A stretch of 29,307 nucleotides of DNA from a virus, in IMG/VR virus record IMGVR_UViG_3300031914_000001, positions 1 to 29,307 of that record; one strand, 5' to 3'. Positions 1,203-6,013 of the stretch are shown piece by piece. The translations under genes and the position numbers were made by a program. The notes under the pieces were generated by a model. It was given only the letters and a program-made list of their open reading frames with translations, made no database searches and was not told the origin of the DNA. Numbering within the stretch: position 1 is the first letter of the stretch; every line of letters begins with the position of its first letter.

Positions 1203-3323
1203 ATGTCAACCACCCACGACCGACGAAAGGAGAACGAGACGCTAACCGAGACGCTGGTCCGCTTCCTTCGGGAGCGGTACCGTGACGCGATCGGCACGCT
1301 CGCGCAGCACTACCCGAACGAACAGCGGTCACTCGTCGTCGACTACGACGAGCTGTACGAGTTCGACCGCGAGATCGCCGAGGATATCCTCGCGAAGCCG
1401 GACGAGATGCAGGAGTACCTGGAAGAGGCGCTGCGGAACTTCGACCTCCCGGCGGACGTGTCTCTCGATCGGGCTCACGTGCGCGTGGCGAACCTGCCGG
1501 ACGAGTACACGCACTACCCCGGTCACTTCAGTCCGACCAAGGTCCACAACGACCAGCCGTACATCGGCGTCGAGGGCGAGATCGTCGCGGGGAGCGACGT
1601 CCACCCGAAGGTCACCGAGACCGCGTTCGAGTGCAAGCGCTGCGGGACGATGACGTACATCCCGCAGACGGATCGCGGCTACCAGGAGCCCCACGAGTGT
1701 CAGGGCTGTGAGCGGCAGGGGCCGTTCCGCGTCAACTTCGACCAGTCCGAGTTCATCGACGCCCAGAAGATCCGCCTCTCGGAGCCGCCGGAGGTCGCCG
1801 GTGGCGAGGGCCAGTCGATCGACATCTTCGTCGAGGATGACCTCGCCGGCGAGGTGACCACGGGCGACCGCGTCACCATCACCGGGCGGCTTCACCTCGA
1901 ACAGCGGACGAAGGGCAACGAGAAGAAGTCGACGTTCGAGCCGTACCTGAACGGCCACGCCATCGAGGTTCAGGAGTCGGACCAGACGACGGTCGAGGTC
2001 TCGCACGACGAGCGGAAGGAGATCGATGGGATCGTCGACGGTGAGCTGGGCGAGCCGCTCGTCGTCGCTGCCGAGTCGATCGCGCCGGGCGTGTTCGGCG
2101 AACAGTACGACCACATGAAGCGGGCGATCGTCCTGGCCGTGGTCGGCGGCGATTGGGTCGAGGGGAAGGACGGCAGCGTCGAGCGCGGCTCCATCAGCAT
2201 GCTCCTCGTGGGCGACCCGTCGACGGGGAAGTCCGCGCTGATCAACCAGGCCGAGTCCAACGCCCCGCGGTCCGTCGGTGTCTCGGGGAAGGGCGCTCGC
2301 GAAGCCGGCATCACTGCCTCGGCCGTTCGCGACGACTTCTCCGACGGCGAGTGGACGCTCAAAGCGGGCGCGTTCGTGAAGGCGAACGGCGGGATCGTCC
2401 GGATCGATGAGCTCGACGACATGCCGCCGGACGTGCGGGCGGCGATGCTGGAGCCGATGGCCAACGGGAAGATCAACGTCTCGAAGGCCGGGATCAACGC
2501 GACGCTGCAGACGCGCGTCGGCGTCATCGCTGCGGCGAACCCGAAGTACGGCCGGTTCGACCCCTACGAGCCCGTCGTCGAGCAGGTCGAGCTCGGGTCG
2601 ACGCTCATCTCGCGATTCGACCTCGGGTTCACCGTCACCGAGACCGACGAGGTCAACACCGTCAAACAAGTCGCTCGGGACATCGTCGGCCGTCGCGAAC
2701 ACAAGAAGCGCCTCGACGTCGCCCCGGAGACGATCGAGCCCGGTGAGACCGACAAGTACGATCCGCCGGTCCGGAGTGAGCTCCTCCGAAAGTGGCTGGC
2801 GCTCGCCGGCGACCAGCCGTCGCCCGTCATCGCGAGCGAAGAGCTCGAACAGCGGATCGCCGACGAGTTCTCCGACTTCAAGACGAAGCACATGGGAGAG
2901 GACGCGCCCGTCCCCGCGACGTGGCGCGACCTGGAGGCGCAGCTGCGGCTCGCCGAGGCGGCTGCGAAGCTGGAGTTCTCGGAGACGATCGAAGAGCGGC
3001 ACTTCAAAACGGCACTCTCGCTGACGATGCGCTCGATGCGGGACTTCGGGATGAACGAGGACGGTGAGTTCGACGCCGACGTCCGCGAGTCCGGCACGTC
3101 GAAGACGCAGCGTGACCGCATCACAGTGCTCGAGGACATCGTTGAACAGCAGTGCTCTGAGGGGAACAGCAACGGTGCCGCTGTCGAAGACGTTCTTGAC
3201 GAGGCCGAGGCCGAGGGCGTCGACCGGAAGCGCGCGGAGAAGGCGCTCCGGAAGATCAAGGAAGAGATCGGGTCGCTGTACGAGCCGATGGATGGCACGC
3301 TCAAGTGGCTCGGGAGGGCGTAA
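1203..3323 (+). CDS. mcm: MCM replicative helicase
   Basis: Zn finger CKRC...CQGC, Walker A GDPSTGKS, Walker B IDELDDM, presensor hairpin VSKAGINATL, AAANP, Arg finger SRFDL, sensor 2 TWRDLEAQLRLAEA, C-terminal wHTH-like tail. Start set at ATG 1203. Confidence 0.97.
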   Translation: MSTTHDRRKENETLTETLVRFLRERYRDAIGTLAQHYPNEQRSLVVDYDELYEFDREIAEDILAKPDEMQEYLEEALRNFDLPADVSLDRAHVRVANLPDEYTHYPGHFSPTKVHNDQPYIGVEGEIVAGSDVHPKVTETAFECKRCGTMTYIPQTDRGYQEPHECQGCERQGPFRVNFDQSEFIDAQKIRLSEPPEVAGGEGQSIDIFVEDDLAGEVTTGDRVTITGRLHLEQRTKGNEKKSTFEPYLNGHAIEVQESDQTTVEVSHDERKEIDGIVDGELGEPLVVAAESIAPGVFGEQYDHMKRAIVLAVVGGDWVEGKDGSVERGSISMLLVGDPSTGKSALINQAESNAPRSVGVSGKGAREAGITASAVRDDFSDGEWTLKAGAFVKANGGIVRIDELDDMPPDVRAAMLEPMANGKINVSKAGINATLQTRVGVIAAANPKYGRFDPYEPVVEQVELGSTLISRFDLGFTVTETDEVNTVKQVARDIVGRREHKKRLDVAPETIEPGETDKYDPPVRSELLRKWLALAGDQPSPVIASEELEQRIADEFSDFKTKHMGEDAPVPATWRDLEAQLRLAEAAAKLEFSETIEERHFKTALSLTMRSMRDFGMNEDGEFDADVRESGTSKTQRDRITVLEDIVEQQCSEGNSNGAAVEDVLDEAEAEGVDRKRAEKALRKIKEEIGSLYEPMDGTLKWLGRA

Positions 3324-4859: not shown

Positions 4860-5345
4860 ATGTCTACCACTACCCAACAGTCACTCGATGAGTTCGCGCC
4901 TCGTCGCGACGTCGTTCCAGCCCGCGTGTTCGAGCGCTATCTCTGGACGAACCCCGAGGTGTGCAGCGAGTGCTTCGCCCGGATCCGTACCGAACACGAG
5001 TTCACACGCGATCAGTGGGGGAACACCGTCACCGAGCTCGACCGGGCAGACTCGGGCGTTCAGGGGTACGACAACGTCAACGGCGGTGGCGTGTACCTCC
5101 CGCGGACGTTCTGCGAGGAGTGTGGTGGCCGGGGTCGCGCCGATCCGGACACGGACTCGAAGGTCCAAGCGACGCGCCGAGCCAGTCGGATCGCCGACCG
5201 CCTCGAGGAGCAGGACATCCCCGTCGACTCCCGAGCACTCCGCCGGGCCGTTCGGAAGCTGAAGGCGAAGCCCGAACTGGAGGCACTCGACCGGGAGATC
5301 TACGAGCGCGCCACCAAACTCGCTGTCCGGAGGGCACAGCGATGA
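4860..5345 (+). CDS. Zn-ribbon protein with helical C-terminus
   Basis: CSEC...CEEC; ATG 4860; ATGA-coupled to the next ORF. Confidence 0.8.
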   Translation: MSTTTQQSLDEFAPRRDVVPARVFERYLWTNPEVCSECFARIRTEHEFTRDQWGNTVTELDRADSGVQGYDNVNGGGVYLPRTFCEECGGRGRADPDTDSKVQATRRASRIADRLEEQDIPVDSRALRRAVRKLKAKPELEALDREIYERATKLAVRRAQR

Positions 5346-5521
5346 GCCTCTCGCAGTACGGGCGCGTCGAGTTCCCGTTCGGCGACCGGCGCCTCGTCGG
5401 CGATGCAGTCGACTTCGAGCCCGCCGGCGACGTCTCCGGGCCCGACGGCCTCCTGGTCGTCGACGTCGACGGGCTCACGTACCGCGTCGAGGAGTCGAAG
5501 GTCGAGCGGTTGGATCGATAG
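5342..5521 (+). CDS. 59-aa hypothetical protein whose last codons overlap the tRNA-Phe 5' end
   Basis: MSLSQYGRVEFPFGDRRLVGDAVDF...KVERLDR; stop TAG at 5519-5521 lies inside the tRNA. Confidence 0.6.
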   Translation: MSLSQYGRVEFPFGDRRLVGDAVDFEPAGDVSGPDGLLVVDVDGLTYRVEESKVERLDR

Positions 5522-5582
5522 CGCAACGGGAGCGCACCGCCCTGAAGAGGCGGAGGTCCCGGTTCGAGTCCGGGTCGATCCA
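5512..5582 (+). tRNA. Virus-encoded tRNA-Phe(GAA)
   Basis: Complete cloverleaf: acceptor GGATCGA/TCGATCC plus A73, D arm GCGC-AACGGGA-GCGC, anticodon arm CCGCC-CTGAAGA-GGCGG, variable AGGT, T arm CCCGG-TTCGAGT-CCGGG. Confidence 0.93.
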
Positions 5583-5585
5583 TGT

Positions 5586-5863
5586 CCCGTGGGGCGTGCC
5601 TTCTCCGGAAGGCCAGGTCACCCTGCGGGGATGTTGAGCCGAATGAGCGGCCGGCAGCCATAACCGGCGTTCGGTACCTCAACGTGTTGTCTACGTCGCG
5701 TATCATGCTTCTTCGGACCGTCTCGACACGACGTTCCAAACCCAACCAAGACCGGCCGCCTTGCGACGCCTGTGGCCAGGTGACGGACGCCCCTATTGGG
5801 AGTGGCGAAACCAAAGCCCTCTACGGAGCTCCCCCGTCCCGGGTTCGATCCCCGGCGTCGCCG
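5586..5863 (+). ncRNA. Putative structured non-coding RNA(s) after tRNA-Phe, ending in a tRNA-like module
   Basis: Nested helices found by eye (5586-5629, 5631-5685), three cUNCGg tetraloops, and a T arm CCGGG-TTCGATC-CCCGG with acceptor-like pairing GCGACG/CGTCGC. Confidence 0.5.
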
Positions 5864-5905
5864 TTCGAGTCGTATCGCACGCTAATCCCTCCGTTTCCTC
5901 TCCAG

Positions 5906-6013
5906 ATGCCCAGCCCGACCCATCGTTCGACGACCGGCCAGTGCCCGGAGTGTGGCGCCAGCCACGCCTCGGCGAGACCGTGTGACTGCCAGCCCTACGC
6001 TGATGTCACATGA
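5906..6013 (+). CDS. 35-aa CPxCG-type Zn-finger microprotein
   Basis: MPSPTHRSTTGQCPECGASHASARPCDCQPYADVT; ATGA-coupled to the next gene. Confidence 0.6.
   Translation: MPSPTHRSTTGQCPECGASHASARPCDCQPYADVT

Follow-up and report, generated by a model that had tools for sequence, protein, structure and literature searches.

What lies in the gap that follows the tRNA-Phe gene of BJ1-like haloarchaeal viruses? The records of Halorubrum virus BJ1 and of provirus Humcor1 carry no annotation over the 320–440 bases 3′ of tRNA-Phe, and neither genome paper discusses the gap. The same question arises in the window, by which we mean the whole 29,307-nucleotide stretch of GC-rich haloarchaeal DNA analysed here (positions 1–29307, equivalent to 750746–780052 of contig C1). 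From the small ORF upstream of the gap to the next start codon, this DNA is 73% identical to BJ1 and 68% identical to Humcor1. An earlier note, made by eye, had proposed that the gap encodes a novel haloviral non-coding RNA that tRNA-processing enzymes release. This proposal is supported at every point that can be checked computationally, with release predicted by analogy to a known archaeal system. Here, we describe the RNA, which we term RNA-1, the tRNA-shaped elements that flank it, and a candidate target in the early-operon leader of the same viruses. The features are collected in Table 1.

Table 1. Coordinates of RNA-1, its parts and its neighbours. Positions are those of the window unless another record is named.
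Feature	Position	Strand	Length	Description and basis
ORF42-like gene	5342..5521	+	59 aa	Last gene of the upstream operon; stop codon inside the tRNA
tRNA-Phe (GAA), 5′ flank	5512..5582	+		ARAGORN; Rfam tRNA model, 69.6 bits
RNA-1, structured non-coding RNA	5583..5761	+	~179 nt	Match to model R1; no conserved ORF
Domain 1	5585..5631	+		P1 (5585–5594 with 5621–5631) and P2 hairpin (5597–5614); covariation
Candidate seed GAAGGCCAGGUCA	5608..5620	+		3′ strand of P2 plus the near-invariant bulge AGGUCA
Linker	5632..5646	+		Near-invariant ACGAG at its 3′ end, which reads AAUGAG in the window
Domain 2	5647..5759	+		Long-range P3 (5647–5655 with 5750–5759) closing a variable core of ~95 nt
tRNA-like element, 3′ flank	5762..5863	+	~100 nt	Covariation
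Conserved tail	5885..5908	+	24 nt	Ends in the ATG of the following gene
Early leader, BJ1	L257 9561–9670			
Early leader, Humcor1	L258 34007–34118			
Early leaders, further records	L259–L263, L268–L270, L272–L274			

The RNA-1 family is defined by a covariance model, R1, built in the present analysis. A BLAST search of 257 genomes from the host's family turned up the cassette (RNA-1 with its flanks) in 11 further genomes, all from the host's genus, and pattern scans of viral and metagenome contigs, filtered by nhmmer and R1, added more loci. The result is a set of 27 distinct BJ1-like loci, comprising viruses, proviruses and metagenome contigs, each of which carries exactly one copy of RNA-1 at scores of 82–154 bits; the window holds the most divergent copy. 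Across the family, the segment between the two flanks is 160–190 nt long. R1 detected neither a second copy nor a host-encoded paralogue in the window's own genome or in 150 sampled Halobacteria genomes. Two leads were discarded along the way: a scan of genome contigs with a degenerate 18-mer returned chance matches only, and the viral-contig match L007 was spurious.

The genomic surroundings are also conserved. In BJ1, Humcor1 and the window, the cassette terminates an operon that encodes MCM, a winged-helix regulator, a zinc-finger ORF and a 59-aa ORF, and it sits exactly between the replication and packaging modules. Homologues of the 59-aa gene, ORF42-like, are present in 25 of the 27 loci, and the reading frame always ends within the tRNA or tRNA-like element that precedes RNA-1. 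RNase P cleavage would thus remove the ORF42-like stop codon. AF2 models the protein as a small four-stranded SH3-like barrel (pLDDT 80) with weak Foldseek matches to Tudor, chromo and Hfq folds. A role as an Sm-like partner of RNA-1 was considered and dropped, since the fold is a generic SH3-like barrel and every match has an E-value above 0.1. On the other side of the cassette, the tail CCCTCCGTTTCC.CTCCAGATG is kept in about 20 of the 27 loci despite unrelated downstream genes, and it lacks a Shine-Dalgarno motif. This tail probably forms the 5′ leader that processing leaves on the downstream messenger, in which it may act as a translation or stability signal. Pairing of the tail with an arm of the tRNA-like element or with P1 showed no covariation.

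RNA-1 folds into two domains joined by a linker. In Domain 1, P1 is a helix of ~11 base pairs interrupted by a small internal loop, and it encloses the P2 hairpin, which varies in length and sequence among homologues and bears a CUUUUC-like loop in most of them. Between P2 and P1, on the 3′ side, lies a 6-nt bulge, AGGUCA, that is kept in 26 of the 27 copies. Domain 2 is closed by P3, a 9-bp helix that is 100% paired in 22 sequences and that exchanges CG, UA, AU and GU pairs at three positions. The core within P3 differs in length and fold by lineage; the motifs GAUCGUG and CAAAC...CAAGU recur in it. A possible pseudoknot between the ACGAG linker motif and an internal UCGUG (CACGA/UCGUG) is 84% paired, with no compensatory change.

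The earlier note had suggested looking for covariation among homologous intergenic regions, and compensatory changes were indeed found. Across 22 homologues, standard base pairs fill 94.2% of pair cells, compared with 36–45% when the partners are slid. Double changes occur in 35 cells against 11.9 in shuffled alignments, and none of 500 shuffles reaches the observed number. P1, P2 and P3 together contain 24 G-U cells and a single A-C cell, which identifies the + strand as the RNA; the + strand also folds better than the − strand. Folding energy tells a more limited story. The note had counted an energy no better than shuffled sequence as evidence against the RNA, and by that measure the whole 322-nt gap fails (z = +0.52), whereas single domains reach z-scores from −1.4 to −3.6, Domain 1 scoring −2.5 in the window copy and −3.6 in L016. 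The case for RNA-1 therefore rests on covariation and not on energy. Judged by these sequence comparisons, RNA-1 represents a genuine and hitherto undescribed family of structured RNAs in BJ1-type (Graaviviridae) haloarchaeal viruses.

With this consensus in hand, the pairings that were originally read by eye can be sorted. All the sequence strings quoted in the earlier note are present at the positions given for them, and about half of its pairings are correct. Its pairing of 5586–94 with 5621–29 is helix P1, conserved with covariation in the 22 homologues, and its hairpin GCCTTC-TCCG-GAAGGC (5598–5613) is the conserved P2. The others are lineage-specific or clash with P3: ATGTTGAG/CTCAACGT pairs only in the window lineage, CCGAA/TTCGG is likewise confined there, and GCCGG/CCGGC conflicts with the fully paired and covarying P3. 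The note had also been guided by three apparent cUNCGg tetraloops, a route to the non-coding RNA that proved mostly wrong. Just one of the three is a loop, and none is conserved. CTTCGG (5711–16) falls in a hypervariable stretch and is private to the window lineage; CTACGG (5821–26) forms part of the stem and junction of the downstream tRNA-like element; and in place of the UCCG loop of P2 most homologues have one of the CUUUUC type.

RNA-1 resembles no catalogued family, as the earlier note had supposed. Rfam 15 returned nothing at gathering score in the window besides tRNA calls, one of which, also called by ARAGORN, is a partial tRNA in the first 55 bases. Over 5583–5761 there was no better-than-chance match at E-values up to 10. 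The BJ1 copy gave no Rfam match, nor did the RNA-1 of L016, a group-B copy. The families that were compared include GOLLD, ROOL, SRP RNA, RNase P RNA, 5S rRNA, C/D and H/ACA RNAs and ribozymes, and RNA-1 belongs to none of them. Resemblances to RNase P, SRP, 5S, C/D-box and H/ACA RNAs that could be picked out by eye, such as the 8-mer AAGUCCGG and the string GGUCAGGUC, have the wrong topology and no model support. RNA-1 is also not an unusual or intron-bearing tRNA: it has neither a T loop nor an acceptor stem, and ARAGORN and the Rfam tRNA model are blank across 5583–5761. A viral RNA anti-CRISPR that mimics the host's CRISPR repeats was considered as well. Contig C3 of the genome carries two CRISPR arrays, at 67.4–76.0 kb and 333.6–337.5 kb, with differing repeats of 30 nt and 37 nt, and local alignment of RNA-1 to both repeat types was no better than that of shuffled sequence.

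The most distinctive feature of the locus is that RNA-1 is bracketed by tRNA-shaped elements. Nineteen of the 27 loci have a tRNA as the 5′ flank. The remaining eight have a mini tRNA-like element, built from an acceptor stem, a single hairpin and a T arm; in L010 it matches the mascRNA model at 34.5 bits. The tRNA is Phe in most loci, Val in L015, Asn in L239 and another tRNA in L045. For example, L015 carries tRNA-Val GAC (1762–1833, − strand) in place of the Phe GAA seen elsewhere, and L239 carries tRNA-Asn GUU (about 3200–3265) on the same retained acceptor stem. L045 (6259–6541, − strand) has two tandem tRNAs. The 5′ flank offers what tRNase Z would act on, namely an acceptor stem plus T arm with the discriminator base directly before the cargo. 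The P2 loop had been entertained as a presenter of Phe codons to the adjacent tRNA-Phe, an idea that was abandoned because the loop stays unchanged when the tRNA identity switches.

The 3′ flank is a tRNA-like element in all loci. Its acceptor stem has 6 bp and its D-like hairpin 4 bp. Beside these it has a long arm in three parts, whose 9-nt loop is conserved, and a canonical T arm with a 5-bp stem and the loop UUCGAUC. Both the acceptor and T helices show compensatory changes. Overall, 99.1% of cells are paired, double changes occur in 14 of 28 counted pairs, and none of 500 shuffles reaches the observed value. The acceptor stem begins only 3 nt after P3. The cargo is thus followed directly by an acceptor stem stacked on a T arm whose T loop is canonical, as is expected of an RNase P substrate. 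ARAGORN makes no tRNA call here, and the only Rfam matches, to tRNA-Sec and mascRNA, are below threshold. An intron-bearing tRNA or bulge-helix-bulge splice site was rejected: inspection by hand found no consistent anticodon loop, and the arm helices covary as helices. We also note that the motif GGCCAGGTCA (5611–5620) of RNA-1 recurs with one change, as GGCCAGGTGA, at 5774–5783 in the D-like hairpin of this element, and that a related GGU(C/G)AC is kept in that hairpin in all homologues.

That the tRNA shape is kept while the decoding identity is free argues that the flanks serve as cleavage signals. A precedent comes from Haloferax volcanii, in which RNase P and tRNase Z free an RNA that has been set between two t-elements (PMC4326828). 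By analogy, we infer that RNA-1 is excised by tRNA enzymes, a step that the architecture supports well. RNA-1 would be transcribed at the distal end of a long rightward early/replication operon. Host tRNase Z would then cut after the upstream tRNA or tRNA-like element (here after discriminator A5582), creating the 5′ end of RNA-1, and host RNase P would cut 5′ of the downstream tRNA-like element, creating its 3′ end; the two cuts together would excise the RNA.

A candidate target emerged from whole-genome scans for complementarity. In both BJ1 and Humcor1, the best or near-best complementary run of RNA-1 falls at one and the same orthologous site, which lies on the + strand 5′ of a PadR-type regulator gene; the exact match is 11 nt long in BJ1 and 13 nt in Humcor1. 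Haloarchaeal transcripts usually start at a set spacing from a TATA-like box. Judged by eye and from this general knowledge of haloarchaeal promoters, the site begins at transcript-start spacing from such a box, which would place it at the extreme 5′ end of the early messenger. The leader is found in the same genome as RNA-1 in BJ1, Humcor1 and nine other proviruses, and the exact 10-mer occurs at just these two places in each virus genome. Leaders from BJ1, Humcor1 and further proviruses were compared as 14 cognate virus pairs. With G-U pairs allowed, the seed forms 12–18 contiguous pairs with leader bases 1–18 in 11 of these. The three exceptions are L013, in which only 9 bp form and the leader CCUCC is unmatched by its RNA-1, and L015 and L037, in which pairing is lost.

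Several features of this complementarity are suggestive of RNA pairing. At its flanks, leader and RNA-1 change together, GGAGG going with CCUCC and CGUGG with CCACG, although this covariation amounts to two or three events; the core of the complementarity varies in neither partner and so shows none. Cognate pairings exceed permuted ones in length (p = 0.01) and less clearly in energy (p = 0.06). C-to-U changes in RNA-1 retain a wobble pair with the leader, which argues mildly for pairing at the RNA level. AGGUCA is an unpaired 6-nt bulge in the consensus and in single-sequence folds, and the rest of the duplex needs P2 to open. In intact relatives, the early leader is a conserved structured 5′ UTR of about 100 nt in which an internal GGCCGGGUC segment forms a helix with the 5′ end; RNA-1 would compete with this leader helix. 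A possible alternative partner for the GGGUC of the same segment is GACCC, directly ahead of the start codon, and both sides have changed together in G207 and G177; this alternative pairing may be a switch in its own right.

These observations can be assembled into a model in which the AGGUCA bulge acts as a toehold and the duplex, which also takes in the 3′ strand of P2, forms at the very start of the early leader. By competing with the internal leader helix, RNA-1 would alter the stability or translation of the early messenger. Such pairing would create a feedback or timing loop, because the early messenger and RNA-1 come from one transcription unit, RNA-1 from its distal end. The model gives no role to Domain 2 or its invariant motifs. 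We consider a regulatory role through early-leader pairing plausible, its chances being slightly under even on the complementarity described above.

The window provirus is an informative special case. By tblastx, its homology to BJ1 covers only 14.8–41.4 kb of the BJ1 genome and ends near window position 28.9 kb. Within 70 kb there is no integrase, no Orc1, no att repeat and no early regulator of the PadR type, and the early leader is absent from the provirus and its vicinity. The window provirus is a truncated remnant, for which published work describes basal expression only. Its RNA-1 could form 13 bp with the BJ1 and Humcor1 leaders. Since the provirus lacks a leader of its own, its RNA-1 would be either a relic or an RNA that acts only in trans on a superinfecting relative.

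Which explanation, then, best accounts for the locus as a whole? The combination of a virus-encoded RNA gene, excision by tRNA enzymes and pairing with the early leader is the account we favour, at what we judge to be even chances. A rival that deserves serious attention, although we hold it to be unlikely, is that RNA-1 is a released stable RNA that works as a protein-binding RNA, a scaffold or a decoy, with the early-promoter motif serving the same protein as a DNA operator or an RNA site. It would give a purpose to the motifs ACGAG, GAUCGUG and CAAAC...CAAGU and to the P3-closed domain, all of which antisense pairing leaves unexplained, and genes for a winged-helix regulator and a small SH3-like-barrel protein are conserved just upstream. 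A protein operator would explain the two complementary sites too, because, as duplex DNA, GGCCAGGTCA and TGACCTGGCC are a single motif in inverted orientation. Two observations speak against this reading. The motif has GGUC rather than GGCC in 12 of the 27 copies, which breaks the DNA motif and keeps a G-U pair with the leader, and the complementarity reaches into the flanks that change together. A purely DNA-level element, such as an operator cluster or a replication or packaging site whose inverted repeats matter as DNA, is very improbable. DNA hairpins under selection also covary, and the region lies in the replication module, but the excess of G-U over A-C cells makes sense only for a + strand RNA, the + strand is the better folder of the two, and tRNA-shaped RNAs encoded on the same strand enclose the element on both sides.

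The cassette could also be a cis-acting processing or insulating module, in which a spacer keeps the cleavage signals folded and separates early from late messenger, the excised piece being functionless. Its position at the boundary of the replication and packaging modules suits such a role, as does the conserved tail, which forms the leader of whichever gene comes next. A spacer, however, needs no invariant bulge, no single-stranded motifs and no long-range helix that covaries over 27 diverged loci, all of which were retained while the real tRNA flank was freely swapped or reduced; this explanation is improbable. Protein coding has next to no chance of being the answer, even though a 143-codon frame (5582–6013) is open in the window. 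Its product is basic and rich in proline and arginine whereas the virus proteins are acidic. No reading frame is open across the homologues, eight of which have stops in all six frames, and homologue indels are not multiples of three. A more specific form of the favoured account casts RNA-1 as a riboregulator excised by tRNA punctuation that invades the leader helix of its own transcript to time the early genes, and that truncated proviruses keep as an immunity RNA against superinfecting relatives. We offer this extended version tentatively and think it rather doubtful as a whole.

To our knowledge, very few regulatory RNAs of archaeal viruses have been described, and neither Rfam nor the BJ1 and Humcor1 papers report a regulatory RNA at the RNA-1 locus. 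If the riboregulator reading is right, RNA-1 would be the first natural archaeal-virus RNA found both to be excised by tRNA punctuation and to work as a riboregulator. If the leader pairing holds, temperate haloviruses would have an RNA switch, directly testable, for their early-to-late or lysis-lysogeny decision, and the pairing would explain why RNA-1 is retained in a defective provirus. In any event, the family can be added to annotation pipelines through covariance model R1.

Several known systems share parts of this design. GOLLD and ROOL are bacterial RNAs of several hundred nucleotides; like RNA-1, they are structured, do not code for protein, belong to mobile elements and occur next to tRNA genes, and RNA-1 matches neither them nor any other Rfam family. 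The species 1 and 2 RNAs of phage T4 are stable, are co-transcribed with tRNAs and are excised by the enzymes that process tRNAs; a target is not known to have been proposed for them. They differ from RNA-1 in their bacterial host and in their unrelated sequence and fold. In eukaryotes, MALAT1-mascRNA and the tRNA-miRNA units of herpesvirus MHV68 use a tRNA-like element as the cleavage signal that sets the end of an adjoining non-coding RNA. The flanks of RNA-1 score 16–34 bits against the mascRNA family (RF01684), compared with a gathering score of 42.5, and are thus not members of it.

Closer to home are two haloarchaeal precedents, one for the proposed action of RNA-1 and one for its biogenesis. 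The antisense RNA of Halobacterium virus phiH is reportedly a same-locus counter-transcript with long perfect complementarity to its target. As cited in PMC6210493, Stolt and Zillig (1993) described it as complementary to the 5′ part of an early lytic messenger and linked it to immunity. Unlike the phiH RNA, RNA-1 is encoded about 10 kb from its putative target, is highly structured and would act through a short seed of 12–18 nt. The Haloferax t-element system is the nearest parallel for biogenesis: in both, a non-tRNA RNA is bracketed by tRNA shapes, with tRNase Z assigned to the 5′ side and RNase P to the 3′ side (PMC4326828). The t-elements are engineered, whereas the RNA-1 arrangement is natural and viral, its cargo is a structured RNA of 160–190 nt, and its excision is predicted here from architecture. 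The signals differ as well, as the 5′ signal of RNA-1 can be a working tRNA and its 3′ signal bears a long extra arm. If the proposed biogenesis is correct, the cassette would be a natural counterpart of the engineered t-element system, in which viruses use the host's tRNA enzymes to produce other RNAs.
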